A stretch of DNA of 51,868 nt from a virus. Taxonomy: Duplodnaviria; Caudoviricetes. The DNA is taken from IMG/VR virus record IMGVR_UViG_3300044815_000174, positions 1 to 51,868 of that record, one strand, 5' to 3'. The notes under the pieces are model-generated. The model did not search any database and was not told where the DNA came from. It saw nothing but the letters and a program-made list of their open reading frames with translations. The position numbers were made by a program, and so were the translations under genes. This document shows, piece by piece, positions 16,763 through 40,254 of the stretch. Position 1 is the stretch's first letter. Each line of letters opens with the position of its first letter.

Positions 16763-16778
16763 TTATTTCTCCTTCGAC

Positions 16779-19279: not shown

Positions 19280-19297
19280 TTCAATTCCTCCACTGAC

Positions 19298-19978
19298 TCA
19301 TTGTTTGCTGTCAATATCCACAGAAAGTGCATCGTTAAATTCTGCTGGTAGCTCGAAAAACTCATTCGCCCAGTAATCGAAAAAATAACCGAACACGCCA
19401 ACGCGCACGCGGATCGTCGGTGTATCGAAGATGGTCCCGATCACGGCATAAATCCTGAAACCCTGCGCTTCGTCCGTGTCATCATCTTCAGAGAAATCCG
19501 CGGGCATCGTGTGATGACTGTGCAGCTCGACGATGGCGCGCTCGGTTGATGTGCCTGCTCCGGTTTCAACGGGGACGACACTATTGTCTTCCGCTTTCTG
19601 GTCTGGAAATTCCAGGTGCCAGCCGTCCGTGAAATCGAGGATGGTCGTTGCGCCGGTGTAGGGTGTTGGCCGCTCATTCCACGACAAATGGAAAAGCGTC
19701 TCTTTAAGTTCAGGCACGCAGCGCGTGCGCGAGAGGGCGAGTATCCTTTGCAGGAAGCGCGCGGGGACTTTAGGAAACCCCCATGTGACGTAAGGCAGGA
19801 TGGGCGCCAGCCCACGCAGTTCGTAGAGCGCGATGGGAATGCACGCTTCAAGGCCGGGCCTGCGAGAGCGCACGAAAGTGCCATTGCCGCCGACGACCAC
19901 GTCTAGGAGAAGGGATTCGTCCACCGGCGGCAGGGGCTGGCCGGGTTGCGCGAAATGATGATCTGTTAGACGGAGCAT
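19298..19978 (-). CDS. JAB/MPN metallo-isopeptidase (PRTRC protein A-like)
   Basis: ELHSHHTMPADFSEDDDTDE JAMM motif and GFRIYAVIG. Confidence 0.9.
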   Translation of the reverse strand: MLRLTDHHFAQPGQPLPPVDESLLLDVVVGGNGTFVRSRRPGLEACIPIALYELRGLAPILPYVTWGFPKVPARFLQRILALSRTRCVPELKETLFHLSWNERPTPYTGATTILDFTDGWHLEFPDQKAEDNSVVPVETGAGTSTERAIVELHSHHTMPADFSEDDDTDEAQGFRIYAVIGTIFDTPTIRVRVGVFGYFFDYWANEFFELPAEFNDALSVDIDSKQ

Positions 19979-20164
19979 GGAAACTTCCTCAATGATCAGC
20001 ACCAGCAAAATTGTTAGAGGTCGCAATCTTTAAGCAGCGCTGACAGGTCACACGCTTGAATCGACGAGTCGAAGTCAGCTCACAGGAAGGCCATCGCTTT
20101 TGAATGTTGCATAAAGGCAAAGTGCCGTAAAAACGAAAATGCGTTTTCTTGTTGCCAGCCATTG

Positions 20165-20884
20165 TCACGATAAATCTCCGCTCTCCAGCAGTCCCTTGAG
20201 TGCCTTATCCAGGGTGATCCCCGTATTGCTCACCTGGCGCTCTAAATCCTGCACCGGGTAATGAGCAGGCTCCGCGGCTCTCGCCATGTCCCTGAGCACG
20301 ACGCGCACGTCGTCCGTGCTGCGCTTCGATTTTCCGTCGCAGCGATGGTTGTTAAAGGGTGTGGTGATAAAGATGCGCCACGCCTGCTTGATCGCGGTGG
20401 CGGAGCAGCGCGGCGGCTGATGGGTGCCGAAGCAGATCAAGCCGCTCGGCTCAACGTTAGGCAGCGGCGCGTGATAGATTTCCCTGTAAGGGTCCAACTC
20501 CTCTGTCTTGACCGCCCACAGGAAATACTTGTTGCCAATCCCGAACATCACGAGACCCGGTAAAGGGACGCTGATCCTGACAACGCCGCCTTTGGCCTCC
20601 GGTGCATCGCTGACCATCTCCAGCGTGTGGCGCTGCGGCTCCATGTACATCACGGCCCAGTCGCCGCTTCGGCCCGTTCCCCAGTTGCGAATCTCGGGCG
20701 GAATCCAGCCCGACGAGACCGTGATCTTCGTGAACGCCTCGCGCACGGCGGCGGCCGAGAGCAACTTTTCATGCACGGCTCCGTCATGATCCCGAACTTT
20801 GAAAAGGAACTGTCCCGAGAGGATTTCAATTCGCGGGGCCGGAGCCACGTTGTTGTACGCGGGACGCATAATCTCTTCGCTCAT
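20165..20884 (-). CDS. Prokaryotic E2-like conjugating protein (PRTRC protein B-like)
   Basis: VPLPGLVMFG...WAVK...HAPLPNV..SGLICFG with the catalytic Cys, and FITTPFN. Confidence 0.85.
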   Translation of the reverse strand: MSEEIMRPAYNNVAPAPRIEILSGQFLFKVRDHDGAVHEKLLSAAAVREAFTKITVSSGWIPPEIRNWGTGRSGDWAVMYMEPQRHTLEMVSDAPEAKGGVVRISVPLPGLVMFGIGNKYFLWAVKTEELDPYREIYHAPLPNVEPSGLICFGTHQPPRCSATAIKQAWRIFITTPFNNHRCDGKSKRSTDDVRVVLRDMARAAEPAHYPVQDLERQVSNTGITLDKALKGLLESGDLS

Positions 20885-20888
20885 TGTC

Positions 20889-21725
20889 TTAAAACTCCCA
20901 TTCGCCTGATGATTGATTCCAGATTTCAATAACGCGAGCGATTTGCTCGGGATGTTGTTGGAGGTAAATGCTTTCCGCGAGCACCGCGGTCAGCATCTGT
21001 TTCGCTAACTTCCAGTGCTCGGCGAGCGCATCGATGTTTTCCTTGTTCCACTCGAATCTGAGGTCCAGATCCTCGTAAGTCGGACTGAGCGGATGCGCGT
21101 CGAGAAAGAGATTTCCTGACCTGTAGCACACGATTGCGAAGGCCTGCGGCAAAAGTCTGAAGGCTGGCTCATCCAGGCAAGCCTGCGTGAATCTTTCAAC
21201 ACTGACCTCTTCCCAGTGCCGCGGGCGCATCTCGAGCGGCAGGTTGTAGAGGCGCGCGAACTTCGGCCACCAGTCCCGTTTCAGAAATGTATTGCAGAGC
21301 GCGATGACGATTTGATAAGCCGTCGGCCAGCTTTCGAATGACGAGCCGTCGCCGATTGTCCAATCGATTTTCTGCATGCACCGGATGGGGATCACGGGGT
21401 AGATAAACTGCGGGTGCTTGTACAGGGGTCGCAAATCAATCGGGAATTTGCGCTTGTTGAGCAGGTGGTAAAACTCGAACTCGCGCTCGTGGGTGTAAAG
21501 CGGGCGCGCTGACCTGCGATAGGCTTCGGGAAAAACTTCTTCGTAGAGGAAGCTGATATTGATTCCGGCCTGCACCATCATGTCGTAGCCCTCGCGCCCG
21601 AGTTCGAGAAAGAGCGCCGCGCCCCGCGGCGTTGTCGCGCGCACGCGGCCCGCGAGGTAAATGGTCGCGCGCAGGGCGTCGAGCGGCTCGCCAAATAGTT
21701 CGGATGTGTTCACGACATCAGACAT
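20889..21725 (-). CDS. Hypothetical helical protein in the PRTRC cassette (position of protein F)
   Basis: Lies between the Ubl and E2 genes; SGNLFLD...FEWNKENIDALAEHW. Confidence 0.6.
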   Translation of the reverse strand: MSDVVNTSELFGEPLDALRATIYLAGRVRATTPRGAALFLELGREGYDMMVQAGINISFLYEEVFPEAYRRSARPLYTHEREFEFYHLLNKRKFPIDLRPLYKHPQFIYPVIPIRCMQKIDWTIGDGSSFESWPTAYQIVIALCNTFLKRDWWPKFARLYNLPLEMRPRHWEEVSVERFTQACLDEPAFRLLPQAFAIVCYRSGNLFLDAHPLSPTYEDLDLRFEWNKENIDALAEHWKLAKQMLTAVLAESIYLQQHPEQIARVIEIWNQSSGEWEF

Positions 21726-21728
21726 GAT

Positions 21729-22223
21729 TCAGAATCCCACGGGCACTTCGTCGGAAGTGGTTGGAAGCGCGTGGCCGATCAGGAAAAGAGCGTCGGCCAC
21801 AGCCTGGCCTTCATTGTTCGATTCGGAGATGGCGCGCTCGACATCTCCGCGTCGTGCGGCTGCCTCGAAGAATTCTCTATCGCCCATCATCTCGGCGCGC
21901 ATGACATCCTCGGTGAGCGCGATGGCCGGGTTGACGTAAGGGGGTGCGGCACGGAGCGCGTCAATTAATTGTGACTGCTCAAGTGCCATGGGCCGCGTCT
22001 CCGGCTGCAACAATGCTTGCGTCAAGGCCACCTGTCCTTTCGGTGTCGCGCGCTTGGTGACGGTGATGACGGCGGGCGCGCCCTCCTCTTTGACGATCTC
22101 GATCTGCGCGTTCTCGATTGCCGGAAATTCCTGCGAGAGCAGATTCCTGACTGCTTCTTTACCCAGTGCGGCAATCTCGTCCGGGACGGTGATGCTCTTG
22201 CCTTCGATTTTTACGATAGCCAT
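21729..22223 (-). CDS. Ubiquitin-like protein (PRTRC protein C-like) with a C-terminal extension
   Basis: The first 63 aa (...VRNLLSQEFPAIENAQIE...ITVTKRATPKG) resemble PRTRC C, followed by about 100 further residues. Confidence 0.72.
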   Translation of the reverse strand: MAIVKIEGKSITVPDEIAALGKEAVRNLLSQEFPAIENAQIEIVKEEGAPAVITVTKRATPKGQVALTQALLQPETRPMALEQSQLIDALRAAPPYVNPAIALTEDVMRAEMMGDREFFEAAARRGDVERAISESNNEGQAVADALFLIGHALPTTSDEVPVGF

Positions 22224-22255
22224 TTCGGTGCTCCTGATGTGGTGGTGGTTGGTGT

Positions 22256-24580
22256 TTAGACTTTGGCGCGGGATTTCTTCGACGAAGACTTGCTCGCCTT
22301 AACAGCGCTCTTTTTTGCCGCAGTCTTGGTTATGGTCTTATCCGCGCGCGCGGCGGGCTTCTTCTTCGTTGAGGGGCTGCTGCCGGCGGCGGCGGTGGCG
22401 TTGCTTGTTGCCTTGGCGAGCGTTTTCTTCTTCGCCTGTGCCTCTTCGAGCTGTGTCTTGACTAATTGCATGACCTCTTCCGGCAATGGTCTGAGGACAT
22501 CGGCGGAGACGACCGTGCGGAATGCGCTGTACGGATCATTGCCAATGCTGATAGTGACGCTGACTTTGTCTTCCAGCCCGGGTATCCAGATGTATGAGAT
22601 CGCCAGCTTCTCATTGCCGAGAAGCTCTTCGATGGGAGTCGGCTCCGGTTGAGTGGGCGTTTGATTCTCCGCCTGACTTCGCGCCGTCTCACGCGCTTTT
22701 TGTCCGGCTTCATATTCGTCCTGATATTCGACGGCATCAGCGATAGCCTCTGCCGAGGTTTTGAATGGCGGGCGGCTAACCCTCAGCGTGTCGTTGTCTG
22801 CACGAAAGCCGGCCGGCATTCCGACCGTTGCATGACGGCGCATCACCCATCCGGCATTTCTCATCGTGACGCCGAAGTAGCTTTCAGATTGGCTGGATAC
22901 TTCGGGTTCCATCGGCGCACTCTTCTGACTGCCTGTTTCTGGTGCCCCTTCTGTGCCCTCCTGCTGTTCTGCCACTGCTGCCGTAGTAGGTTCGGGATTG
23001 GCTTCATTAGCCGGGAGAGAAGTCCCGTCAGGCGCAATCGTTTCTGTCACAACCTCGACACCAGAGATTTGAACTTCGAGCGCATCATGTCCCGGTTGCA
23101 GTTCAACGCCAGCGAAAAGCGGCGTCTCTGGCTCCGCTGCCTTCGTTGCGACCGCGCGCACGATGCCATCGGAGCCGCGACGGCGGCCGTCGTCAGCCAA
23201 AACATTTTGGATCAGGGTTGCGCGCGCCGTCGCCGTCAGGTTTCTGACCAGGCGCACGAGGCTGATTTGGGTGCCGCTCACGGCTGCAAGCTCTTCATCG
23301 CTCGATTCACCGTCCGGGTCTTCGATTAGAACCGGCACAAGGCGTGTAAGCGAGCGGCGCACGTCGCTCAGGAAAGGCTGCGTCATGCCTCCGGCAATTC
23401 CTGTCAGCATCGAATCGGATTCCTTGAACCACTCTTCATCGGCGAGCAGGGTGACAGCCTTGAGGCGCTTATCGTCGTTGGTCAGCCTGAGGCCATGGTT
23501 CGCGTTGGCACGCAGGGCAAACAGAATGGCGTCGCGCAGTGTGCCTTTGTGAACCTCGACATCGAGGAGCGCACCAGCTTCCAGTGCCGCTGCGTGGCGA
23601 TGGTTGCCGTCAGCGACCCAATAGGTTTCGCCATCGAAGAAGACATCTGCGGGAGGGTAGGTGCGACCGGCTTTATAGCCCGCGACGAGTCCCTCGGCGT
23701 GGTCACGATCCAGGCCCTGCGCGCGCATCAGGAGAGATGGATGCGTCGTGAGCCGGTCGGGCGTCATCTGCTGCACGAGAATTCGTGAAGGCTGATCGGC
23801 GCCGAGATCGAAAAGGGAATCGGAACGCGCAGGGTTGGCTTCATCCAGCGTCGCAGCGCCGATGATCTCCACCTTTTCAGCCTCACTTAAAACGCTTTTA
23901 AGAGACGGGTTGATGATCTGGAGAATGTCGGAGTTGACACTGTATTCCCATGCGTCGGCTTCGATGCCCGTGCCGAGCCCCATTGCTTTGAAAGCCTCAA
24001 TATCTTCAACGCAGCATGAAGCGACGATAAGAGTGCCAAGCTCGAGAGCGTCACGATAGGCGATGGCCAGTTCGACGATGCCCTTCAGGTTGTCGGTGGT
24101 GAGCGTGCATTTGAATTCGTAGAGAGTGTCCCCAGCGACCAGATCGGCGATGCCTTCGCCGCTGTCGACATCGGTTCTAAAATGCACGCCTTTGGAAGTC
24201 AGCTCTTCGATGAAGTGACTCCGCAGGTCAACTTCGTGCGCTAGCTCTTTATGCTGTTGTCCGGCAGCGGAAAGCGAAACATGCGGTGCCTTGATCTGGT
24301 TGGCGATGTCTCCAATGCTGGAAAATCCCGATGTGGTTTGAGCGGGCTGCTCCAAAGCCTCATCCGGGCTTTGACCATTGATCTCTCGTTGAATGACGTG
24401 CGCGGCGGCAATTACCTTTGCCTCGGTTTCGAAAGGGCCACGCGCGTCGGACGCCTCATAGTTGCGCCATACGAACTCACCATCTTCAGGAACGACTGTC
24501 CAGCCGGACTCAGACAAAAGTGAGAAGAGCGCTCCGTCTTCGGGACTCAAACCTTTAATTAAATCGATAATGCTGCTCAT
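22256..24580 (-). CDS. Multidomain ParB-like protein (PD-(D/E)xK-like domain, ParB/Srx, HTH, Lys/Ala-rich tail)
   Basis: VFFDGETYWVADGNHRHAAA and ANANHGLRLTNDDKR ParB-type motifs; GIADLV...YEFK nuclease-like motif; histone-H1-like C-terminus. Confidence 0.78.
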   Translation of the reverse strand: MSSIIDLIKGLSPEDGALFSLLSESGWTVVPEDGEFVWRNYEASDARGPFETEAKVIAAAHVIQREINGQSPDEALEQPAQTTSGFSSIGDIANQIKAPHVSLSAAGQQHKELAHEVDLRSHFIEELTSKGVHFRTDVDSGEGIADLVAGDTLYEFKCTLTTDNLKGIVELAIAYRDALELGTLIVASCCVEDIEAFKAMGLGTGIEADAWEYSVNSDILQIINPSLKSVLSEAEKVEIIGAATLDEANPARSDSLFDLGADQPSRILVQQMTPDRLTTHPSLLMRAQGLDRDHAEGLVAGYKAGRTYPPADVFFDGETYWVADGNHRHAAALEAGALLDVEVHKGTLRDAILFALRANANHGLRLTNDDKRLKAVTLLADEEWFKESDSMLTGIAGGMTQPFLSDVRRSLTRLVPVLIEDPDGESSDEELAAVSGTQISLVRLVRNLTATARATLIQNVLADDGRRRGSDGIVRAVATKAAEPETPLFAGVELQPGHDALEVQISGVEVVTETIAPDGTSLPANEANPEPTTAAVAEQQEGTEGAPETGSQKSAPMEPEVSSQSESYFGVTMRNAGWVMRRHATVGMPAGFRADNDTLRVSRPPFKTSAEAIADAVEYQDEYEAGQKARETARSQAENQTPTQPEPTPIEELLGNEKLAISYIWIPGLEDKVSVTISIGNDPYSAFRTVVSADVLRPLPEEVMQLVKTQLEEAQAKKKTLAKATSNATAAAGSSPSTKKKPAARADKTITKTAAKKSAVKASKSSSKKSRAKV
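23883..23904. repeat. Dispersed palindrome, copy 5 (inside the parB-like gene)
   Basis: TCACTTAA-AACGCTT-TTAAGAG. Confidence 0.6.
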
Positions 24581-28524: not shown

Positions 28525-29001
28525 TTATTTCTTGCCCGCTTTTCTTTGAGGCGGCGCTGCGCTGGTTGGAGTCGTCGCCACGACGCGACAATCTTCCATC
28601 ATTACGCTTCCGATCTTCCCATTTCCTTTACATCGGAAGGTTGCTGTTTGGCCGTTTTGCAGGGATGCCAGCGATTGAACTTGATCGTCTTCAAACTCAC
28701 ATTGCACATAAAACATTACTGAACCTGTTCCACTGTCGAGCAGAACCCGCCCACCACTAATTAAACCTTTTGCAATGTGGTCAACCTTACCCGTTACATC
28801 AATGATACGGCCTTTGAAGGAATTGTCTGCGGCGACCTCATTGCTCTGATAGCTTTTGAATAAAGCTTCAGCCGTAACCTGCCTCTCCGCGCTTGCCGGC
28901 GCACTGCTGCTGCTTGTAGAAGTTCCGCCCTGAGAGCAAGCCAGCACAAAAAATAGCCACATCCCAAACACAAGAATCAGAGGGCTGTTTTTGATGTTCA
29001 T
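28525..29001 (-). CDS. OB-fold (tRNA_anti-like) lipoprotein
   Basis: Lipobox VLAC; VTAEALFKSYQSNEVAADNSFKGRIIDVTGKV motif. Confidence 0.85.
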   Translation of the reverse strand: MNIKNSPLILVFGMWLFFVLACSQGGTSTSSSSAPASAERQVTAEALFKSYQSNEVAADNSFKGRIIDVTGKVDHIAKGLISGGRVLLDSGTGSVMFYVQCEFEDDQVQSLASLQNGQTATFRCKGNGKIGSVMMEDCRVVATTPTSAAPPQRKAGKK

Positions 29002-29031: not shown

Positions 29032-29460
29032 TTATCGAACATCGTGAATGCAGTAGGTGACAACTCCCCACGCTTCACATCGCTGCTCTTTATGAATTTC
29101 TTTTGGCCGCATCCGTTTGTTACCCGGTATCAAGAACAGCCGCCCGCCGACTCGTGAGAACTTCTTGACTGTCAAAGCCCCGTCAACATCGACGACAACG
29201 ATGCTGCTAGAGTGCGGCTGTATTGCGCGATCTACAACAATCAAATCGCCAGAATGAATTTCATCATCTTCCATTGAATCTCCCGTTACAGTTAGGCCAT
29301 ACGTCGCATCGGGATTAACAATTAGCCGCTCGTTTAGGTCTATGTAGTCAGCTTCATCTATTGATTCGGCATGTCCGGCAGGCACGCTCCCTGCAAATAG
29401 AGGAATGTGTAAAGCGTCGGCTAACTGTTTTGGATTAAATACAATTTTAGCTGTAAGCAT
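29032..29460 (-). CDS. Stand-alone S24 (UmuD/LexA-type) autopeptidase without a DNA-binding domain
   Basis: VPAG cleavage site, VTGDSM (catalytic Ser), TVKK (catalytic Lys), WGVV. Confidence 0.9.
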   Translation of the reverse strand: MLTAKIVFNPKQLADALHIPLFAGSVPAGHAESIDEADYIDLNERLIVNPDATYGLTVTGDSMEDDEIHSGDLIVVDRAIQPHSSSIVVVDVDGALTVKKFSRVGGRLFLIPGNKRMRPKEIHKEQRCEAWGVVTYCIHDVR

Positions 29461-29462
29461 TG

Positions 29463-29768
29463 CTATGCCGCACCTCGCTTCTTATTCTCAGTCTGTACTT
29501 GCCCGCCATTGTGCATAACGCGCCGCTCCTTCTTCTTGCGCTTGCTACGATCAAGAATTCTCTTTTCCTCAAGAGGAAAGAGCTTTTCAAATCCCTCGGC
29601 GTCCTGTTCCTTAGCCTCACGTATTTGATTCCTGATGAATTGATAAGCAAGCGCCGTTGCGTTTCGGTTCCCCTTAATAGACGCCGCCACATGGAACTCA
29701 ATAAGCTCCGTCAGGGTCACTGGAACAGTAAATAGTTTTGGTTTCTCTTTCACCATAGTATCTAGCAT
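29463..29768 (-). CDS. Putative repressor, ribbon-helix-helix-like (start uncertain, 29768 or 29756)
   Basis: KLFTVPVT beta strand followed by two helices; cI position, divergent from the cro-like gene. Confidence 0.6.
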   Translation of the reverse strand: MLDTMVKEKPKLFTVPVTLTELIEFHVAASIKGNRNATALAYQFIRNQIREAKEQDAEGFEKLFPLEEKRILDRSKRKKKERRVMHNGGQVQTENKKRGAA

Positions 29769-29870
29769 ATATCTAGATGTTGCTTTTGGATATACCATAA
29801 CGAAAAATCCTCTTGACATTATCTAGTGAATCTTTTAGAGTGCTTTATCTAGATAGCTTCTAGACGGAGG
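29755..29870 (+). promoter_or_regulatory. PR/PRM-like divergent promoters with five TCTAG operator cores
   Basis: TTGACA (29813-29818), 17 bp, TAGAGT (29836-29841). TCTAG at 29761, 29772, 29822, 29848 and 29859. Minus-strand TGGTATATC. Confidence 0.8.
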
Positions 29871-29874
29871 GAAC

Positions 29875-30066
29875 ATGCACAAGAAAAAAGACAAAGTGAT
29901 TTTCGTTCTAGCCGATGGCGAGTTTCATGCGCGCGTAAATGCGGCTGCCGAAATCGCCACAGAGGGGAACATTTCCCGACTCACGCGGGAGGCGCTGAAC
30001 GAAAAGATTGAGCGCCTTGCTGAACTTCATCCGCAACATCGGAAGCGCCTCGCGCAGGCCGCCTAA
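29875..30066 (+). CDS. Cro-position ribbon-helix-helix protein
   Basis: DKVIFVLAD...HARVNAAAE...NISRLTREAL RHH pattern; GGAGG ribosome-binding site. Confidence 0.72.
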   Translation: MHKKKDKVIFVLADGEFHARVNAAAEIATEGNISRLTREALNEKIERLAELHPQHRKRLAQAA

Positions 30067-30073
30067 CCCCTAA

Positions 30074-30322
30074 ATGCAAACCACAACCAGAGAAGCGCAC
30101 AGATATAAAAAGAGCCTCGATAAGTTAACGGCTCAGGTTTGCAAATATCTTGCGCGGCTGGATGAGTTGATGAAACAGCCATCGTCAAACGAGCGCGGTC
30201 AGGAAGTCGCGAAGCTATCGAACGCGCTTGATATGGCAAATGACGCGGCGATGCACCTTGACCTCAACATGTCATTTCAGCAAATCAACAATCGTAAGAA
30301 GAAGGCTGCTCGAAAATCTTGA
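30074..30322 (+). CDS. Hypothetical helical protein
   Basis: ORF directly after the cro-like gene. Confidence 0.65.
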   Translation: MQTTTREAHRYKKSLDKLTAQVCKYLARLDELMKQPSSNERGQEVAKLSNALDMANDAAMHLDLNMSFQQINNRKKKAARKS

Positions 30323-30349
30323 TGCAACCCACTTCCCCTAAAGAAACCA

Positions 30350-31163
30350 CAGGGCTAACACACGCGACAAAGCGGAATCTTCCCCTTCGCAAAGCCCGTC
30401 CTAAAACGTTTTAGGTGAACCGGAAGCATTGCCTGAATCAAGATTTGTCACAGTGCATGGTCGGCACTCTGAAAGCGCGGATAACAAGACCTGTCGGTGA
30501 GCCGCATCGGACTTGCGATGCTGGCAATGAGTCCGGCGAAAAGTGCGACACCGCGACGTAGGTAAAGACGATAACTAAACCTGTGTTAGCCGAGCATCCT
30601 CAACATGTCCTTCGTGACTAGAGGCAATCGGCGCAATTTTCGATCTTTCAAAAGTTATCACGCGCCTGTAAGCAATCGGCTATATGCCAGATTGTTAGAG
30701 CTTCGGCTCTCCGGTGCAGCCGCCCACCAGAGCGGAGTCCGGCGCGGTGAAGTTTCGCCGTCAGTAACCAGCGCGGGGCGAACAAATGCGGCGGAGATGC
30801 TGGCAGTCATCATTTACTGCTCACCTTTGCAACGTCCATCTCGGGATGGGTAGCGGCTGTAAGCCGGACGAGAGTAACCGGCAACCTTTGATCTTTGACG
30901 ACATACCACAATAAGGGTTCGACGGTGAGCGAGTGTCGCGTTGCAAGAGGCACATACTCACCGGCGGGCTGGCTAAGACCGAAGCAAAGGGTTCGCGCCT
31001 GAGCTTTGGAAACTGACCAGCGCGCCGACTGAATCCGCATACGAGCAACGTCTGGAACTACCCGACTATAAATGCATAGTCGGACAGCCCAACCAGCGTT
31101 ACAGAGCGGGGCTTGCTTTCATGCACGCTGAACGGGCGCGAATAAATGCGGCATGTAGCCCTG
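30350..31163 (+). ncRNA. Candidate large structured non-coding RNA (about 815 nt)
   Basis: About 1 kb without a credible ORF, many nested helices, and a cUUCGg tetraloop. The 5' end CAGGGCTA pairs with the 3' end TAGCCCTG. Confidence 0.7.
30398..30418. repeat. Dispersed palindrome, copy 6
   Basis: GTCCTAA-AACGTT-TTAGGTGA; perfect 16-bp palindrome at 30400-30415. Confidence 0.85.
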
Positions 31164-31352
31164 CTCCTTAATCTCCGAATGCGGCGCAAGCCTGATGCGA
31201 GTTATCAAAACAACCTTTCAGTTTGTTTACAGCTTGATCGCCTGCGCAGGCGCGCTGTGGCTCTGCCTATACCACGACGACCAACTCTGACAGCGCACAC
31301 TTTAATGATTTCAACTTTCAATCTCTAGTCCAAATTCAAAGGTATTTTTGGA

Positions 31353-31832
31353 GTGTCAAAACAGAAGCGACCACACCGGCCATTGACTCAGCAAACCAAA
31401 GACGCCCTTGAAGGGATCGTCAAACCGGTAGCTGACGAGATGGGCTTTGAAGACGGCTCATATCTTTACAAGATTCTCTCCGACACCGGCTCGGCCTGCG
31501 ACCATTACGCACACTTCAAACCACTGTTTCGCAGCGTCGCGCGAGTCTCATTAAGCCGCGCGCGAATCTGGCTGAACGACCTCAACGCCATATTTCAAAG
31601 GGAAGCAGAGAAGCAATCCAAAGAGTCGAACTTTCAGGCGCAGAGCAGTCGAGCGTTAGAGATGCTGGCGAAGGCCAATTCGATTTTAGCGGACAAGAGG
31701 ATTGAGACACTGACGCGGGATGAACAGAAAGCAATGAGCGGAGCTTTTAGAGAGGCATCGCAGGCCGCCGAGATGGCGAGCATTCTGGTTGAAGATTCGA
31801 TGAAGAGGGAAGCGGAGATGGCGCTTCAATGA
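31353..31832 (+). CDS. cII-like HTH regulator (by position and fold pattern)
   Basis: IVKPVADEMGFEDGSYLYKIL HTH-like segment with a helical C-terminal domain; lambdoid cII position. Confidence 0.5.
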   Translation: MSKQKRPHRPLTQQTKDALEGIVKPVADEMGFEDGSYLYKILSDTGSACDHYAHFKPLFRSVARVSLSRARIWLNDLNAIFQREAEKQSKESNFQAQSSRALEMLAKANSILADKRIETLTRDEQKAMSGAFREASQAAEMASILVEDSMKREAEMALQ

Positions 31833-31835
31833 GGT

Positions 31836-31900
31836 TGGCGGGCTTTCGCGCTTGGCTTATCACATTCTCCCGATCTGATGTCTGAGTGCCAAGCCCGCCG
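31836..31900. terminator. Long hairpin between the convergent cII-like and propeptide genes
   Basis: GGCGGGCTT pairs with AAGCCCGCC; an alternative CTTGGC/GCCAAG pairing also exists. Confidence 0.55.
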
Positions 31901-31904
31901 ACGG

Positions 31905-32084
31905 TTAGAGGATAAAGCTGATGATCGAAGAGGCGAAAGTAAATCCGGCATCTTCGATGTCGCCCATCACATTGGAAACAGGCGGCGGTGCGAATCCGGC
32001 ATCTTCGATGTCACCGGCAAAAGCCGTCACCGGCAGCGACAAGATGACGGCCAGAAGCAAGAGCGTCAGAAACTTTTTCATCAT
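31905..32084 (-). CDS. 59-aa secreted signalling propeptide MMKKFLTLLLLAVILSLPVTAFA-GDIEDAGF-APPPVSNVM-GDIEDAGF-TFASSIISFIL
   Basis: Perfect AAAGGAGGT ribosome-binding site, classical Sec signal ending in A-F-A, and an octapeptide repeated twice. Below the 60-aa cutoff of the ORF track. Confidence 0.88.
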   Translation of the reverse strand: MMKKFLTLLLLAVILSLPVTAFAGDIEDAGFAPPPVSNVMGDIEDAGFTFASSIISFIL

Positions 32085-32128
32085 GGACCTCCTTTCACTC
32101 GAAGTTAGACGAACCTTTTCACTTTAAC

Positions 32129-32785
32129 ATGTCACGAAACTTAGCGGAGACAAAAAACAAGGCCCTGGCGCACGCGCTCAATGATGCGATTGGGCTGCGC
32201 GCGGAAGGCCGCCCGCGCGAGGCGTTAGTTCTCCTTGATTCGCACGCCGCAGAGTTCGAGCGTGGCGACGATCTCTACCGCGCCAAGTATCACAACGGCC
32301 GGGCGCTCAGTCTCAAAGCTTTGAAGCAATACAACGAAGCGTTCCGAGAGTTTGAATTAGCAAAACATTTTTATGGTCTGGCGGGCGACATTCCCCGCGT
32401 TGGTTTATCCGAAAGTAATATCTCAAATCTCTATCTCCAAAATAGTAATACCCGGCTCGCGAAAGATCATCTCTTCAACGCAATTTCCATTTTCCAAACT
32501 TACAAAGAGACGGTTTTTCTCTCACAGGCTCACGAGAATCTGGCGCGAATCTTCTACATCGAGGGCGATTACAGGCAGTCTGCCAGAGCCGCGTGGTTGG
32601 CCTACAACGCGCTCTTAGACGAAGCCTATGAGGTCATCGCGCCGAGAGCCAGAGAAGAGGCCAGAAAGACTCTGGACTGTGCGCTCGACGCTGTTGACGG
32701 GCTAACCACTCAAGACATTCAACGAACTCGCGAGCGAAACGTGTGGGAGCGTCTGCTCGCGTGGCTGCACCTTAAACGGGTGTAG
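32129..32785 (+). CDS. TPR protein, candidate intracellular peptide receptor (RRNPP/Rap-like, no HTH)
   Basis: TPR helix pairs with groove Asn residues (YHNGRA, SESNISN, AHENLAR); 44 bp from, and divergent to, the propeptide gene. Confidence 0.8.
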   Translation: MSRNLAETKNKALAHALNDAIGLRAEGRPREALVLLDSHAAEFERGDDLYRAKYHNGRALSLKALKQYNEAFREFELAKHFYGLAGDIPRVGLSESNISNLYLQNSNTRLAKDHLFNAISIFQTYKETVFLSQAHENLARIFYIEGDYRQSARAAWLAYNALLDEAYEVIAPRAREEARKTLDCALDAVDGLTTQDIQRTRERNVWERLLAWLHLKRV

Positions 32786-32786
32786 C

Positions 32787-32836
32787 GGGCAAGTGGCGGT
32801 GCGTGCGGGGTGAGGACGCAAGCACCGTCACTGCCT
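32787..32836 (+). other. Strong RNA hairpin after the TPR gene
   Basis: AGTGGCGGTGC...GCACCGTCACT stem with an inner TGCG/CGCA pair. Confidence 0.5.
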
Positions 32837-32936
32837 TACTCCAAGGCGAGCGGCGGGCGCGCCGGTTGTGGACTCCAAGCGAGGGGGCGGAGTTGACACA
32901 CTCAGAGAGGGGTGATCAGTCCCAAGTCCCAGACGG

Positions 32937-33341
32937 GTGAAGATGAAGCTCACGACTCAAGAGTTGAGCGATGCTGCGTTAGAGCTTCTGATCGAACTCG
33001 AAAGCTCGCGCCTCGAAGTCGTGCTCATCCCCGCGCCGGAACAACGACACTCCTGCCATTCGGTGCGAGCAGTTCAGGAGTCGAATGCCGAGTGGTACCA
33101 GAAAATGTGCAAGCGCCACCTCAGACGCCGTAAACGTTATTCAAAGCCCGACACCCTCATCAACCGAGCACACACGATCAAGGCCCTGGAGCGAGTCATG
33201 GAAGGTCGAATTGACAGCCTGTACGCCGAACGGTTGATGCCCTTCATCAAGGAAAAGGCACAGGAAATGCGGGGGGGGCGCTTCGATTCTTATTCCGAGC
33301 AGCGCGTCGAGTCGGCGAGTTGTTCACCAGTTGGAGGTTAG
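32937..33341 (+). CDS. Hypothetical protein
   Basis: 134-aa ORF in the early right operon. Confidence 0.6.
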   Translation: MKMKLTTQELSDAALELLIELESSRLEVVLIPAPEQRHSCHSVRAVQESNAEWYQKMCKRHLRRRKRYSKPDTLINRAHTIKALERVMEGRIDSLYAERLMPFIKEKAQEMRGGRFDSYSEQRVESASCSPVGG

Positions 33342-33344
33342 CGC

Positions 33345-33563
33345 ATGAGTGAAGTCGAATCGGAAATACGACGCAAACATAACCAGTTGAGCGCAGACCT
33401 GGCCGCGCGTATCCGTGAATTCCAGGAAGAGACCGGGTGCGCGGTTCTCAGGATCGCTGTGCAAAACGGCGGTGACAAGGCGGGCATCCCGCGCCTCATC
33501 GGCGTTGCCGTCGAGATCGAGGTTGACGCGCTTGATGAGCAGCGCGCAGTTGAAAGTGAGTGA
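33345..33563 (+). CDS. Hypothetical protein
   Basis: GGAGGT ribosome-binding site. Confidence 0.65.
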
Positions 33564-33573
33564 AAGGAAAATT

Positions 33574-33789
33574 ATGGCAGAGAGAATCAGAGGCAAAGTG
33601 AAGTGGTTCGATGGAGAGCGCGGGTTCGGGTTCATCCTGGGAGCCAAAGGCAGCAAAGACATCTTCGTCCATTACAGCGCGATCCAGACCGAGGGGTTCA
33701 AGGCGCTATACGAAGGCGAAGAGGTTGAATTTGAAGTCAGCCAGACGCCCAAAGGTCTGCAAGCCGAGAACGTCGAGCGGCTGTCATAG
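33574..33789 (+). CDS. cspA: Cold-shock protein (CspA family)
   Basis: [15 protein letters not shown] (RNP1), [10 protein letters not shown] (RNP2) and KGLQAENV. Confidence 0.95.
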
Positions 33790-36338: not shown

Positions 36339-37319
36339 ATGACCAGACCCGCATCTCTCCTAATCGATGAACCACCCTTACAGGTGCTGCCGACGCTCGC
36401 CGAGCGCATTGGCCTTAATGAATCCATCGTGCTCCAGCAGGTTCACTACTGGCTGCGCAACTCCAAAAACGTGATCGACGGCCAGAAATGGACATTCGAC
36501 ACCTATGAGGACTGGCAGCAGAAAAACTTCAAATTCTGGAGCGTCAAGACCGTTCAACGCGCTTTCCTCTCCCTCGAAGAGCGTGGTCTTTTGATCTCCA
36601 TGCAGCCCGATAAGCGCGACCGCCGGAAGTGGTATACCATCGATTACGACCTCCTCGAAAAGTTGTCTTCAGACACACACACACCGGACGACCGCTTCGC
36701 TTCGGGCTCTCCGCCAACAGGACAAAATGACCTCTTGCAAGAGGACAACTTGTCATTATCAGACGGGACAACTTGTCCTCTTGCATCAGGACATGTTGAC
36801 CTCTTGGGAGATGACAACTTGTCCTCACCATCAGGTCAACATGTCCCGTTGTATAAAAACCCGGAGACTTCCTCTGAGAATCCCGGAGAACTCACACACA
36901 CCGCAGCGCGCTCTTCGCCCGGCGGCAACGGGAATAGAAACGGTCAACAGGCGTGTGTGTGTGAAACTCCGCATCGTTCCAAAATCTGCGACGAGGAGCG
37001 GATCCGCATTGCCAGCAACCTGCCGGGTGTTATTACCCCTGAATTTTACGCCATGACGCCTGACGCGCGCAGGGGCACCTTCGATGCCGTGTACCTCAAA
37101 CACCAGCGCCAACTCGCCAAGCCAGGGGCGACCAGCACGGTAGAGCGAGACACTTCCATCTGCCCTGACTGTCACGGCCATGGGTTCGTCTACCCCGGCG
37201 GCGATACGCCGGAGGGCCGGAAGCTGGGGACGAAAAAATGCCAGCATCCTCGCCTGGAATCATCGCCGAATGCCCTCCCCAACTCCACAAGCGAGGTGAC
37301 AGCTTCCAATGGCCGGTAG
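36339..37319 (+). CDS. Lytic replication initiator Rep2 (replisome-organiser-type winged HTH)
   Basis: LLIDEPPLQVLPTLAERIGLNESIVLQQVHYWL...FWSVKTVQRAFLSLEERGLL...KWYTIDY; intragenic iterons; lambda-O-like position. Confidence 0.88.
   Translation: MTRPASLLIDEPPLQVLPTLAERIGLNESIVLQQVHYWLRNSKNVIDGQKWTFDTYEDWQQKNFKFWSVKTVQRAFLSLEERGLLISMQPDKRDRRKWYTIDYDLLEKLSSDTHTPDDRFASGSPPTGQNDLLQEDNLSLSDGTTCPLASGHVDLLGDDNLSSPSGQHVPLYKNPETSSENPGELTHTAARSSPGGNGNRNGQQACVCETPHRSKICDEERIRIASNLPGVITPEFYAMTPDARRGTFDAVYLKHQRQLAKPGATSTVERDTSICPDCHGHGFVYPGGDTPEGRKLGTKKCQHPRLESSPNALPNSTSEVTASNGR
36720..36846. repeat. Lytic origin: six palindromic 13-bp iterons GG(A/T)CA-N3-TG(A/T)CC at 22-23 bp period
   Basis: Copies at 36720, 36743, 36766, 36789, 36812 and 36834. 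Confidence 0.88.
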
Positions 37320-37593
37320 AAAAAGACAGGGACTTGTCGCCTCCGGCCTCTGCCGCACCTGTGGAAAGGCGCGCGGGGCCGATGGCACGACGATCTACTG
37401 CCGCCCATGCGCCAACGAGCGTAGCGCAGCCCAGGCCGCGCGCAATGCTGCCAGGAAAGAAGACCACAGGCTGAGAGGGCTGTGCCTCACCTGCCCCACT
37501 CGCCTGACCTCGCGCAATGATCCGCTCTGCCCTGCCTGCCGGAGAAGAAAACGCCGTCGAGACCTCCGTTACGATGCAAAATCAAGCCCTTGA
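37309..37593 (+). CDS. Tandem zinc-finger protein, candidate late-gene activator
   Basis: Two GLC..C-X-C..C units with basic helices; last early gene, ending at late promoter 1. Confidence 0.65.
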   Translation: MAGRKRQGLVASGLCRTCGKARGADGTTIYCRPCANERSAAQAARNAARKEDHRLRGLCLTCPTRLTSRNDPLCPACRRRKRRRDLRYDAKSSP

Positions 37594-37653
37594 ATTTCCG
37601 ACGTTGCGCCCGACGTTGCGCCCGCTTCCCGCTTCCCGCTCTCCCGCATAATG
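37592..37653 (+). promoter_or_regulatory. Late promoter 1 (lysis/terminase operon)
   Basis: ATTT, (CCGACGTTGCGC)x2 at 37598-37621, 25 bp, CATAAT at 37647. Confidence 0.8.
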
Positions 37654-37685
37654 AGAACACGCCGAACTTGGCTTACCTGCTAATT

Positions 37686-38459
37686 ATGAACCTATCGCTT
37701 CAACAACTCTCCGACATCATGCCGCTCCTGCGTGCCGAGGACGCGGAGCGGTACCTGCCATTCATCAATCAAGCCTGTGAAGAATTCCAGATCAACACGG
37801 TCGCGCGCGTCACGGCGTTCATCGCGCAACTTGCACATGAATCGGGTGAACTCCACTACTTCGAGGAAATCTGGGGACCGACGCAGACGCAGAAAGGTTA
37901 TGAGCACCGTACCCATGATCTCGGCAACACACAGCCGGGTGATGGCCGTCGTTACAAAGGGCGTGGGCCGATTCAATTAACCGGGCGTGCCAACTATGCG
38001 CGGGTCGGCGATGCTCTCAAGTTGCCGCTTGTGGCACAGCCCGAACTCGCTGCCGTCCCGGCCAACGGCTTCCGTATCGCCGGCCACTTCTGGAAAGAAA
38101 AGGGCTTGAATGCGCTCGCCGACGCGGGGGACTTCAAGACCATTACCAGGCGAATTAATGGCGGATTAAACGGCTATGAAGATCGCTGCAAATACTTCGA
38201 GCGCGCGAAAAAAGCATTTGCTCCGAAGCCTTTGCGTCCCGTGCTCAGGCAGGGCGCCGCCGGGCCTGACGTAAAAGATTTGCAGAATGCGCTGGTGCAG
38301 CTTGGCTATTTACCGCCGAGCGCAGTAAGCGCCAGATTTGGCTCCGATACGGTTTTCGCCGTGCAGGCATTTCAGAAGGCCGCGCACCTCACGGCAGATG
38401 CGATTGTTGGACCGGCGACATGGACGGCGCTCAATAACGCTATCGCGAAAAGGGGATGA
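37686..38459 (+). CDS. Endolysin: GH19 domain plus peptidoglycan-binding domain
   Basis: AFIAQLAHESG, YKGRGPIQLTGRANY, TRRINGG; C-terminal LRQGAAGPDVKDLQNAL...AFQK...DAIVGPATW. Confidence 0.93.
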   Translation: MNLSLQQLSDIMPLLRAEDAERYLPFINQACEEFQINTVARVTAFIAQLAHESGELHYFEEIWGPTQTQKGYEHRTHDLGNTQPGDGRRYKGRGPIQLTGRANYARVGDALKLPLVAQPELAAVPANGFRIAGHFWKEKGLNALADAGDFKTITRRINGGLNGYEDRCKYFERAKKAFAPKPLRPVLRQGAAGPDVKDLQNALVQLGYLPPSAVSARFGSDTVFAVQAFQKAAHLTADAIVGPATWTALNNAIAKRG

Positions 38460-38692
38460 TTATGGAGTCTTCGTCAGGGGCTATCAAAGATAAGTTCTTA
38501 GCGGGTGTCGGCGTGGCCCTCCTGCTTGCCTGTTACATGGTTCTGGCCTTCTACGGTCTTGATACGAAGTTTATTGAAGGCGGGACGCTGATCATGATTG
38601 GCGTCTTCGCCGGGCTGTTGAAGCAGTCGCCATCGCCACAGCAGAACATCAACGCTGATACGCACGAAATGAATATCAGCAGCAAACCTTAA
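38456..38692 (+). CDS. Holin candidate
   Basis: 78 aa with two TM helices; overlaps the endolysin stop; M-I-M dual-start-like N-terminus. Confidence 0.65.
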   Translation: MIMESSSGAIKDKFLAGVGVALLLACYMVLAFYGLDTKFIEGGTLIMIGVFAGLLKQSPSPQQNINADTHEMNISSKP

Positions 38693-38713
38693 CCCATCAC
38701 CATCAGAGGGATT

Positions 38714-39391
38714 ATGAAAATTCGATTCAATCAAATCATCGCAACCATCACGATGCAGGCGCTCTGCATCGCCCTGCTGGCCGCCTGCGGTGCCAGCGAA
38801 GTGCAGCGCATCGTGTCCAAAGCCGATTACGTTGCACAGACCGTGCAGTCACTCGACCCTGCCGGACAACTCCTCGCTGAACGTCTGATCACGATAGATG
38901 AGGCCGAGTTCGCCCGCGAGAAGATGAGCGGCTTTATGAATGTCTTCACTCCCTTTGACACTGAGCTGACCGCCATTGTCAAAGCCAATCCGAACGCGAA
39001 TCTCGCATCAATCGCGCCCGCTTTCGCAAATGTGCTGATCCGCTTCAACGAGTTCGCGACCGTAAAATTCAAAGACCCGAAAGCTCAACTTCGATATGAG
39101 CAAATTCTTGGAGCCGCCCGGATCGGCATGACCTTCATCGCCGCCTTCTTCGCCTCGAAGCTCGCACAGGCTGAAAAATTCTTGAAGCGGCAGATGCCTT
39201 CATTTATGGAGCGTGCCCAGGCCAGACTCGCAGGCGTGCCTTACGACAAAGCGCGTCTTAGTCATGCCAGGGAGATTAGCCGTGCCGGTGGCAATGACGC
39301 GGGCGCGCGTGCCGTCTGTGATTACTTCCAGATTCAATACGACGAGCGAGGGCTGGTTTTGCTCCGCGCTTACGGCGCACAGGGCGCTTAA
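38714..39391 (+). CDS. Lipoprotein in the lysis cassette (spanin-like candidate)
   Basis: Lipobox LAAC-G; helical; internal hydrophobic segment IGMTFIAAFFA. Confidence 0.6.
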   Translation: MKIRFNQIIATITMQALCIALLAACGASEVQRIVSKADYVAQTVQSLDPAGQLLAERLITIDEAEFAREKMSGFMNVFTPFDTELTAIVKANPNANLASIAPAFANVLIRFNEFATVKFKDPKAQLRYEQILGAARIGMTFIAAFFASKLAQAEKFLKRQMPSFMERAQARLAGVPYDKARLSHAREISRAGGNDAGARAVCDYFQIQYDERGLVLLRAYGAQGA

Positions 39392-39421
39392 TTCTTCCGC
39401 TGCTCTGACAGGATATCTCTT

Positions 39422-39853
39422 ATGGCTTTGATTCCAGACTTAACCGCCATCGGCGAGACTCTCACGAAGATCGCCCTCATCTTCACCTTCATCGGTGCTG
39501 CCGCCTATGGCCTGTACAAAGGAGTCAAGACTGCCAAAGAGCGTGGCGCCAAAGATGAGCGTGAACGTCAGGCATTCATCACCAGTGAAGTCGAGCGCCA
39601 GGTCACAGCACACGCCAAGTCCTATGAAGAACGCATCGCCATTCTCAAGGAAGCGCTGGCCGCCGTGCAGATCGTCGCCGACTTCACCGGCAAACGCCTC
39701 GCTTATCAGGAAGAGGAACTCCGAGAGCATAAAAATGAGATCGGCGAATTGCGCTCGGAGATCAAGCGCCTGAGCGGCGAACACGCTGCCGCAGTCAGCC
39801 GCGCCTTCGAGTTACAGGGGCAGTTGGATTCGATTAAGAAGGAGCGTGCATGA
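39422..39853 (+). CDS. TM plus coiled-coil protein (i-spanin-like candidate)
   Basis: Single N-terminal TM helix followed by a long coiled coil. Confidence 0.55.
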   Translation: MALIPDLTAIGETLTKIALIFTFIGAAAYGLYKGVKTAKERGAKDERERQAFITSEVERQVTAHAKSYEERIAILKEALAAVQIVADFTGKRLAYQEEELREHKNEIGELRSEIKRLSGEHAAAVSRAFELQGQLDSIKKERA

Positions 39854-40254
39854 GCAAGGCACGAGTCCTGGTTGCGGATGACGACGAAAGCATTCGCGAA
39901 TTGCTCTGCCTGCGGCTCGCTCGTGAGGGCTATGAGGTCGTTGGCGTGCGCGACGGCATTGCGGTGCTGAGAGCGGTGCAGGAGGCGCGCGCGGCTAAAC
40001 CCTTCCAGTTCGCGATTCTGGATTGCGCGATGCCCTTGATGGACGGCCCGACCTGCGCGGAGACCATCAGGAAACTCGAAGCCCTCAAGCCCCAGTATTG
40101 CAAGCTGCGGATCGCTTTCTTCTCCGCCTATATCGACGGCATAGATTGCGAGGAACTCAAACAAAGAGGCGACGCGGATTTATGTCTGGAAAAAGGCTCC
40201 GGTACGACTGACTCAATCGACAGGCTCTTGAATTGGCTCGACGGCAGAGGCTAG
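39850..40254 (+). CDS. Single-domain response regulator (CheY/Spo0F-like receiver)
   Basis: VLVADDD, ILDCAMPLMDG (phospho-acceptor Asp), FSA, and LEK (conserved Lys). Confidence 0.92.
   Translation: MSKARVLVADDDESIRELLCLRLAREGYEVVGVRDGIAVLRAVQEARAAKPFQFAILDCAMPLMDGPTCAETIRKLEALKPQYCKLRIAFFSAYIDGIDCEELKQRGDADLCLEKGSGTTDSIDRLLNWLDGRG

Follow-up and report, generated by a model that had tools for sequence, protein, structure and literature searches.

A conserved small phage protein with a doubled octapeptide motif encoded divergently from a TPR_12-type protein in a soil phage

Analysis of a divergent gene pair in a complete phage sequence of 51.9 kb that comes from a soil metagenome (the window, 51,868 nucleotides in all) revealed that the smaller of the two genes is real, is conserved in one relative, and encodes a tiny, probably exported protein that carries an eight-residue motif twice. 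The 218-aa product of the neighbouring gene is a generic TPR protein of the TPR_12/kinesin-light-chain type, belonging to a sparse family. The layout resembles that of the RRNPP peptide-signalling systems; our comparisons point to nothing specific that links the small ORF to the TPR gene. We tentatively favour, at a confidence short of even, an envelope-directed exported accessory peptide encoded beside a separate early regulatory TPR adaptor. The reading made earlier from the sequence alone (the sequence-only reading) had also proposed that the host lies outside the Firmicutes and is probably diderm. For the tail hub there are matches in 103 phage records, the majority of them from Caulobacter, Rhodobacter and Pseudomonas hosts, and the lysis region appears by eye to encode a lipoprotein and a TM-plus-coiled-coil protein; the tail-hub matches and these two lysis-region proteins lean weakly toward that proposal, and the host is probably diderm.

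The small gene lies on the minus strand at 31905 to 32081, stop codon included, and encodes 58 aa from the second of two adjacent ATGs or 59 aa from the first, at 32084; the start was called at 58 aa in the Logan assembly (P0004) and at 59 aa in JGI/IMG (P0006). The second ATG (32081) is the likelier start because the GGAGG core of the Shine-Dalgarno sequence AAAGGAGGT (32087 to 32095, minus strand, read from the sequence) is spaced 6 nt ahead of it, compared with 3 nt for the first. This 8-nt match is the longest and strongest among the 35 starts checked. Codon usage gave 0.39 bits per codon (rank 2 of 149 ORFs of 50-80 aa), and three assemblies (P0004, P0005 and P0006) have a minus-strand gene call here. 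The 59-aa ORF with a strong ribosome-binding site that had been singled out earlier is thus borne out by its translation signal, its codon score and its homologue, P0005. It is the sole minus-strand gene within a long rightward block, and its GC content is the same as that of its neighbours (0.52 compared with 0.53-0.54), giving no sign of recent insertion. The whole gene is antisense to the path of the early operon transcript.

A different functional product from this region would be either a plus-strand ORF of 68 aa (31921-32127, with its stop 2 nt ahead of the TPR start) or an RNA. The plus-strand ORF is co-oriented with the operon, is preceded by AGGA at a distance of 8 nt and is gene-like in codon usage (0.198 bits per codon), but the minus-strand ORF scores twice as high (0.387 bits per codon), has the best Shine-Dalgarno match of the starts checked, alone has a predicted signal peptide, and is the one that the gene callers took in those three assemblies. 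An RNA product is disfavoured by the unremarkable fold of the minus-strand RNA (z = -0.45) and by the lack of any Rfam match in 29500-33500. We regard a product other than the minus-strand protein as highly improbable.

Residues 1-22 of the 58-aa form (32016 to 32081, minus strand) have the features of a Sec signal peptide, with two Lys at the N-terminus, a long uncharged hydrophobic stretch and A-F-A ahead of Gly. When a crude, home-made signal-peptide filter was applied to the 579 Met-started six-frame ORF variants of at least 40 aa, two passed, both of them the small ORF, as compared with none of 20 shuffles. The features of the proposed Sec-type signal peptide ending in AFA therefore hold on inspection and in the filter, which no other ORF in six frames passed, and by this heuristic the protein is probably exported.

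The octapeptide GDIEDAGF starts at the predicted signal-peptidase site (copy 1, 31992 to 32015, residues 23-30) and recurs, as had been noticed from the sequence, nine residues later (copy 2, 31941 to 31964, residues 40-47), the two copies flanking a Pro-rich linker of 9 residues (31965 to 31991). A DNA repeat search detected the copies as a 23-nt repeat, 96% identical and spaced by 51 nt, and the 24-nt copies differ solely by GGT/GGC and TTC/TTT. These synonymous differences had been taken to suggest selection on the peptide; the differences themselves were confirmed, but the support they lend is weak, since 15 of the 72 single changes are synonymous, and a random pair of changes would thus leave the peptide unaltered with p about 0.04. 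A search of viral contigs with the back-translated octapeptide returned three stretches, all in unrelated proteins with a single chance copy. The protein ends in a hydrophobic, uncharged tail of 11 residues (31908 to 31940, minus strand like the segments before it), which has no basic end and is too short for a membrane helix. The predicted mature product comprises 36 residues (23-58), of which 6 are acidic and none basic. PEP-CTERM, GlyGly-CTERM and PGF-CTERM sorting signals were rejected on visual inspection, given a tail of just 11 residues that lacks a basic end, and a lipoprotein or spanin identity was rejected because the protein has no Cys.

Proteins of fewer than 60 aa with an N-terminal hydrophobic helix also include uncleaved membrane proteins, and a type-I-toxin-like or holin-like product checked by the antisense early transcript would fit the position of the entire gene opposite the early operon transcript path. 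Such a product would not account for the A-x-A immediately after the hydrophobic core or for the long conserved acidic repeat region, which has no counterpart in such toxins, and the lysis genes lie elsewhere (37590-39853). This explanation seems to us distinctly improbable.

Only one homologue of the small protein was found (P0005, 82-84% identical); in it the predicted signal peptide, the two copies of the motif and the hydrophobic tail are all retained. Identity is 21 of 22 residues in the signal peptide, 7 of 8 in copy 1 (GDIEDPGF in P0005), 8 of 8 in copy 2 and 8 of 11 in the tail; the linker, the only variable segment, retains 5 of 9 residues and has a 2-residue insertion in P0005. No longer relatives of the small protein scored among 151 candidates, and tblastn against phage records gave no match. 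P0005 and the corresponding TPR homologue, P0002, are each on an ENA contig of 1596 bp, and this equal size, by itself, suggests a shared contig. The TPR proteins of the two phages are 72% identical. We give this second pair little weight because it comes from a close relative, in which any neighbour would stay conserved. Searches for the loci of TPR relatives in viral, metagenome and genome contigs (with the window TPR, the family alignment, P0007, P0008, P0047, P0134 and P0014) gave no confirmed locus; the portal protein as query found no related viral contig. Among sequencing runs that hold the sequence no RNA run was listed, and the single DNA run, a soil metagenome that may be the source, yielded the source contig only, with no variants.

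Few regulatory signals were found around the pair. The divergent intergenic spacer of 44 bp (32085 to 32128) holds no Shine-Dalgarno match ahead of the TPR start and no called σ70-like site; an extended -10-like TGnTAAAGT at 32121-32129 on the minus strand was seen by eye only. A promoter and terminator scan gave nothing above chance (2 promoter-like sites compared with 2.8 expected). Just past the stop of the small ORF is an inverted repeat (31834 to 31902, 12-nt arms, 92% complementary, 45 nt apart) that also appears in the MFE structure predicted for minus-strand RNA; it lacks a downstream T-run and was not called as a terminator by the scan. The motif AGTGAAAGG, common to the leaders of the small ORF and the csp gene, was not enriched (8 matches compared with 10 expected), and PADLOC defence models found nothing on the small ORF and TPR pair. 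The early gene upstream (31353 to 31832, plus strand, 159 aa) is flanked by a Cro-like RHH gene on one side and by an O/DnaD-like replication gene on the other. It had been labelled cII-like, a label that only this position fits: its product matched no family in Pfam, PHROGs or NCBIfam at E<=0.01 and no CII family at E<=0.1, and a single-sequence AF2 model (pLDDT 57) was too poor for a fold search.

The TPR gene (32129 to 32785, plus strand) is divergent from the small ORF, 44 bp from its first ATG, and its start is fixed by the alignment of family N-termini. The 218-aa product has no signal peptide. An AF2 model is all-helical (pLDDT 78), its best PDB folds by Foldseek being KLC1, KLC2, LGN and BtubC (TM-score 0.4-0.53, identity 14-21%), and a profile search gave 2818 matches at E<=1e-3, mostly TPR proteins. 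Pfam matches of the window protein alone are sub-threshold (TPR_1, E 7e-4; TPR_12, 0.01), and 11 of 12 family members match TPR_12 (PF13424; best 8.5e-17). Asn residues occur at positions 56, 97 and 137, about one per repeat, and N97 is invariant in all 12 family members. Profile, fold and family thus uphold the description of a head-to-head TPR-only neighbour with Asn-bearing helices. The kinesin-light-chain and LGN TPRs (PDB 5oj8, 3zfw, 6f9i and 3sf4), which are its best fold and PDB sequence matches, likewise have repeats of about 40 residues with one Asn per repeat, and they have peptide-binding grooves, some of them, according to the entry titles, for acidic-aromatic peptides. Unlike the window protein, they are eukaryotic cargo and polarity adaptors, and the likeness reflects a generic relationship of fold and does not amount to orthology.

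The nearest non-trivial sequence relatives of the TPR protein are uncharacterised bacterial proteins that combine TPR_12 with a C-terminal Fis-type HTH (HTH_8, PF02954). Among the TPR relatives this HTH was detected in 2 of the 12 short ones and in 7 of the 20 longer ones, whereas it is missing from the C-terminus of the window protein and of the three homologues nearest to it, so that the window protein, correctly read as HTH-less from the start, is an HTH-less member of a family whose relatives carry one. A literature search on the TPR-plus-Fis-HTH architecture, including prophages, found no report, and a comparison of the TPR protein with phages and plasmids gave no match.

The two genes could instead be linked inside the cell, with the TPR protein serving as a chaperone or holdase of the unexported pre-protein or controlling its export or synthesis, or with the link consisting of overlapping divergent promoters only. 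The start codons 44 bp apart and facing outward, the lack of a Shine-Dalgarno sequence of its own for the TPR gene, and a weak resemblance of the TPR protein to the LcrH/SycD secretion chaperones would fit such a link. That resemblance (E 0.0045) is far below the cut-off, non-significant and equivalent to generic TPR similarity. Sec substrates of small-protein size need no dedicated chaperone, which also counts against an intracellular link, and we consider one improbable.

The most far-reaching alternative is RRNPP-like signalling, in which the propeptide would be cut to one or two GDIEDxGF octapeptides that build up in the extracellular medium, are re-imported, bind the concave face of the TPR protein and bias the lysis-lysogeny decision or induction. 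Because the TPR protein lacks an HTH, it would control another protein, possibly the early 159-aa product, the repressor pair or a REC-only phage protein encoded at 39850-40254. The phage also encodes an RHH protein (29463-29819) and an S24 protein (29032-29460). As set out in the available portions of PMC10075063, the RRNPP signature consists of a propeptide of 10-100 aa, its secretion by Sec (SignalP-positive), a receptor of 250-500 aa (validated receptors, 285-473 aa), a TPR HMM match of the receptor (E<1e-5 and coverage >65% in the detector) and adjacency of the genes (-50 to 191 bp). Three of these five elements are found here, namely a small propeptide (58/59 aa), a TPR fold (TPR_12-type by model, Foldseek and 11 of 12 family members) and adjacency (44 bp, divergent), with Pfam E-values of the TPR protein itself that are weaker than the detector threshold; the fourth, Sec secretion, is suggested heuristically by canonical n/h/c regions and A-F-A. 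The retention of both motif copies in P0005 while the linker drifts, the invariance of N97 across the TPR family, and fold matches to TPRs whose structures were determined in complex with peptides, by their entry titles acidic-aromatic ones among them, are also consistent with signalling. The Fis-type-HTH relatives place the TPR family among regulators, and the first-ranked Atlas structural neighbour, a lead only, is an HTH_3-plus-TPR_12 cluster.

Known pairs from Bacillota and their phages (Rap-Phr, AimR-AimP, PlcR-PapR, PrgX-PrgQ and Rgg-SHP) likewise place the gene of a small secreted propeptide, the Sec signal being a probable one in the present case, next to that of a cytoplasmic TPR protein. 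In the sections of PMC11343458 available to us, mature pheromones are 5-10 aa, a range that includes the candidate 8-aa peptide, and Rap, HTH-less like the window protein, acts on response regulators. The same source describes Phr propeptides of the Bacillus phages phi3T and phi105 that also carry two near-identical short peptides in one secreted propeptide; their Rap receptors are verified and about 380 aa, whereas the TPR protein here is a candidate receptor.

Several observations argue against signalling. At 218 aa, with its start confirmed by the N-terminal alignment, the candidate receptor is shorter than the RRNPP range and than the shortest validated receptor (285 aa) in the same portions of PMC10075063. 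Its homology to RRNPP receptors goes no further than generic TPR similarity: it is not a homologue of the Rap, Rgg, NprR, PlcR, PrgX or AimR families, Pfam gave no match to RNPP_C or another RRNPP family (P0001), and PF18768 was matched by only 1 of 12 TPR relatives (E 0.0012). In PDB sequence comparison much lower scores were obtained for RapJ, RapI and RapH than for LGN and consensus TPRs, KLC likewise scoring above the Rap chains, and no RRNPP receptor was among the Foldseek matches listed (ranks up to 50). The candidate peptides are N-terminal and internal, a placement unlike that in the known pairs, as are the divergent genes and the probably diderm, non-Bacillota host, whose additional outer membrane a peptide would have to cross. 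Signalling leaves the conserved hydrophobic tail after copy 2 unexplained, and the motif is nearly constant between phages whose TPR proteins are only 72% identical, giving no sign of co-diversification. The pair was also picked from a very large scan precisely for its RRNPP-like look, a selection bias. A co-fold of the TPR protein with the mature 36-residue part (residues 23-58) gave a score of 0.02 (mark 0.32), which speaks neither for nor against binding. On balance RRNPP-like signalling appears unlikely, although it is the strongest of the rival explanations. The fuller claim seems doubtful to us, namely that this is the first arbitrium/Rap-Phr-like module in a phage whose host is a soil bacterium outside the Bacillota, probably a diderm one, with two acidic octapeptides sensed by a minimal HTH-less TPR protein that evolved independently of the RRNPP receptors; a literature search for such a peptide-TPR system outside Bacillota found no report.

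In the explanation that we favour, an exported envelope peptide and a separate TPR adaptor, the small pre-protein would be exported by Sec and cut by signal peptidase I after A-F-A, giving a strongly acidic 36-residue peptide in which two GDIEDxGF motifs are set on a Pro-rich linker and are followed by a short hydrophobic tail. As the sole minus-strand gene in a rightward block, and with a ribosome-binding site that surpasses those of all other starts checked, the gene can be read as a self-contained, moron-like accessory gene. Its product may be active in the host periplasm or envelope, where binding to an envelope protein, for instance, could keep out other phages or modify the envelope itself. 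Transcription of the gene against the early operon might cause mutual interference between early rightward transcription and small-gene expression. The TPR protein would be a cytoplasmic TPR_12-type adaptor, an HTH-less relative of the TPR-plus-Fis-HTH regulators, acting separately from the peptide as an early regulatory protein through protein-protein contact. We infer cleavage, location, target, expression timing and the independence of the two genes in this scheme.

Several features fit an envelope peptide. Small signal-peptide-bearing periplasmic phage exclusion proteins are known, for example T4 Spackle and P1 Sim, which resemble the small protein, so understood, in being small Sec-exported phage proteins with an accessory role in the envelope; they lack a tandem short motif, and the small protein has no sequence similarity found to them. 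The predicted mature part and the TPR protein would be on opposite sides of the membrane, and another envelope-directed accessory gene, for a Sie-like lipoprotein (28525-29001, PHROG 8.4e-21), lies on the same strand as the small gene. The coding and translation signals of the small gene and the probably diderm host count in the same direction, as do the generic similarity of the TPR protein and its length outside the RRNPP range. So does the conserved hydrophobic tail after copy 2, because pheromone precursors need no such tail; in the available sections of PMC11343458, the mature peptide is typically C-terminal in its precursor. Against an envelope peptide stands the exact tandem motif around a variable linker, which is typical of processed peptide precursors and unusual for exclusion proteins. 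Neither promoter nor terminator was found for the small gene by the scan, and its composition is that of the surrounding DNA, both of which also count against this explanation. Its juxtaposition with a TPR protein of peptide-binding type would be a chance event, expected, by a rough estimate, for a few percent of TPR genes.

Phage peptide communication is known only from Bacillota, and if the signalling reading were true, the present pair would extend it to a soil phage with a diderm host and would provide a very small receptor to study. Under the more ordinary reading, the small protein defines an orphan family, with two members, of exported phage peptides, predicted to be highly expressed, with a conserved doubled motif, and the TPR protein belongs to an undescribed group related to the TPR-plus-Fis-HTH regulators. 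In sum, the case shows how little the RRNPP signature by itself proves outside Bacillota.

Analysis of the 59-aa ORF on the minus strand (31905-32084, counted from the first ATG) indicated, on the basis of its coding and translation signals, that it is a real gene. It is preceded by the Shine-Dalgarno site AAAGGAGGT (32087-32095, minus strand), the longest match among the 35 starts examined, with a spacing better for the second ATG (32081). Strong sites also precede capsid-module genes, indicating that the host reads Shine-Dalgarno signals. Codon usage scored 0.39 bits per codon, ranking second among 149 ORFs in the 50-80 aa range and equalling the capsid gene, the two plus-strand ORFs antisense to it scored 0.198 and 0.032, and gene callers picked the small ORF in three assemblies. 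The gene and ribosome-binding site described in the sequence-only reading were thus borne out by the longest Shine-Dalgarno match and the codon rank, and the Sec signal assigned to its product is likely: a crude signal-peptide filter applied to 579 Met-started ORF variants passed the small ORF alone, and none in 20 shuffles.

After the predicted cut at A-F-A, the mature protein would have 36 residues (6 acidic, 0 basic), comprising, in order, GDIEDAGF, a 9-residue Pro-rich linker, a second GDIEDAGF and an 11-residue uncharged hydrophobic tail. Alignment of the DNA units agreed with the claim that the octapeptide is doubled 9 residues apart in copies differing only synonymously: the DNA repeat covers 23 nt (96% identity, spacing 51 nt), and the 24-nt octapeptide units have 2 differences, both at synonymous third positions (p about 0.04 under random change). 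The only relative in 5.8 billion protein clusters was P0005 (60 aa, E 1.8e-20); no longer protein with the motif was found. Residues identical between the two proteins numbered 21 of 22 in the signal peptide, 7 of 8 in the first octapeptide (Ala to Pro), 5 of 9 in the linker, with a two-residue insertion, 8 of 8 in the second octapeptide and 8 of 11 in the C-terminal tail, indicating constraint on the motifs, but also on the signal peptide and tail.

The TPR gene (32129-32785, plus strand) is divergent to the small ORF, the two starts being 44 bp apart. Its 218-aa product alone barely matched Pfam TPR models; a profile of this protein and two homologues gave 2818 matches (E<=1e-3), the majority to TPR proteins with several repeats, and the AF2 model is all-helical (pLDDT 78). 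The best PDB folds were TPR domains of kinesin light chain, LGN and BtubC, with no RRNPP receptor among the fold matches listed, at ranks up to 50, and in a comparison of the family profile with PDB sequences RapJ, RapI and RapH ranked far below consensus TPRs and LGN. True relatives are few, including P0002 (72% identity, 147 aa), P0003 (52% identity) and P0007 (E 9e-101); about ten stand-alone relatives of 185-242 aa have the N-terminal helix and motifs in common with them. A C-terminal Fis-type HTH occurred in 2 of 12 short and 7 of 20 longer relatives, indicating that the TPR protein is an HTH-less member of a group otherwise resembling transcription regulators. The sequence-only description of a TPR-only protein lacking an HTH agreed with the helical model and the family profile, and such a protein would fit action by protein contact, with no partner indicated. 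P0002 and P0005 each derive from a 1596-bp ENA contig, probably one and the same, and the layout of the pair there is uncertain because P0002 begins at an internal position. Synteny at 72-84% identity would in any case say little about the function of the pair, and searches for loci of the more distant TPR proteins retrieved none.

The 159-aa gene (31353-31832, plus strand) resembles cII only in position, lying between a Cro-like RHH gene and replication genes, and the label "cII-like" is therefore dropped. The preceding ~1 kb (30323-31352) has no coding-like ORF (all <=0.05 bits/codon) and no Rfam match, and may be regulatory DNA or an unknown RNA. At 29032-29819 (minus strand), an S24 peptidase-only protein of 142 aa (29032-29460; Pfam 1e-25; best PHROG match UmuD-like, 2.5e-31) follows, at a distance of 2 nt, a 118-aa ORF that is ribbon-helix-helix-like by eye and had no family match; together these may form a split repressor or UmuD-like arrangement. 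The early operon also encodes a cold-shock-domain protein (33571-33789, plus strand; PF00313, 5e-27), whose leader has the 9-mer AGTGAAAGG in common with that of the small ORF, and enrichment of this 9-mer in the genome was not found. The 151-bp gap 3' of the TPR gene (32786-32936) is GC-rich (67.5%) and contains a 19-nt imperfect direct repeat (32838-32856 and 32872-32890, 34 nt apart). A promoter-like site (31864-31892, minus strand; TTGGCA, 17-nt spacer, GAGAAT; 9/12) lies just past the small ORF stop, antisense into the 159-aa gene; such sites were no more numerous in this region than expected by chance.

The record is classed as 100% complete with direct terminal repeats (51,868 bp), its first and last 127 bases being identical, and the single public run containing it, a soil metagenome, may be its source. 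Its genes are those expected of a tailed phage: small and large terminases, a Mu-type portal, a capsid and a GTA-like tail hub, together with a GH19 endolysin that carries a peptidoglycan-binding domain, an O/DnaD-like replication initiator (36339-37319) and a minus-strand Sie-like lipoprotein. No close relative was found among phage records (portal identity <=25%). A temperate lifestyle is likely, short of proof because no integrase was found among the ORFs scanned. A non-Bacillota, probably diderm host, as previously suggested, is the better guess: the tail hub matched 103 phage records, mainly with Caulobacter, Rhodobacter, Pseudomonas and Roseobacter hosts, and the lysis genes also favor it. 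The large terminase is nearest to those of actinobacterial phages. Read by eye, the genes 3' of the endolysin encode a 78-aa protein with two TM segments, then a lipoprotein, and then a protein that combines a TM segment with a coiled coil and resembles an inner-membrane spanin; their PHROG matches were only weak. Atlas look-alikes of the small protein (score 0.87) hint at Acidobacteriota and those of the TPR protein at Chloroflexota, both being leads only. Other cargo includes a HAD-plus-phosphoribosyltransferase protein (PADLOC ShosT, 2e-29) adjoining a DprA-like protein (PF02481, 7e-51) at 15494-17978 (minus strand), which look like a Shosta-like defence pair, and a ubiquitin-like conjugation cluster (18103-24580, minus strand) with ThiF/E1 (PADLOC E1-E2, 3.8e-12), Prok-JAB (2e-6) and Prok-E2_D (2e-22), followed by two large proteins (278 and 774 aa) without any family.

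Compared with the RRNPP signature of PMC10075063, the pair has a small propeptide, adjacent genes and 44-bp spacing; the Sec signal is likely by the crude filter, and the TPR fold is clear from model and family, the protein alone being under the HMM threshold. Receptor length lies outside that signature, and no homology to any known receptor family was found. In Bacillota, pheromones in tandem copies, pheromones in internal positions and Rap receptors that lack an HTH and act on response regulators are established (PMC11343458; PMC9765709); here GDIEDAGF is doubled, and the phage encodes an HTH-less TPR protein and a REC-only protein (39850-40254, plus strand; PF00072, 2e-12) between the lysis genes and small terminase. 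These precedents make an RRNPP-like signalling design plausible by analogy. In sum, the sequence observation on the pair is correct and chance does not account for it, and peptide signalling is an attractive analogy for it, with true signalling by the pair being the less probable of the two main readings. Some weight also goes to a link inside the cell or at the level of transcription, to a toxic small membrane protein, to a call on the wrong strand and to something unthought-of. We tentatively favor the reading, quite possible, in which the small ORF product would be an exported, envelope-acting accessory peptide and the TPR protein beside it an unrelated early adaptor.
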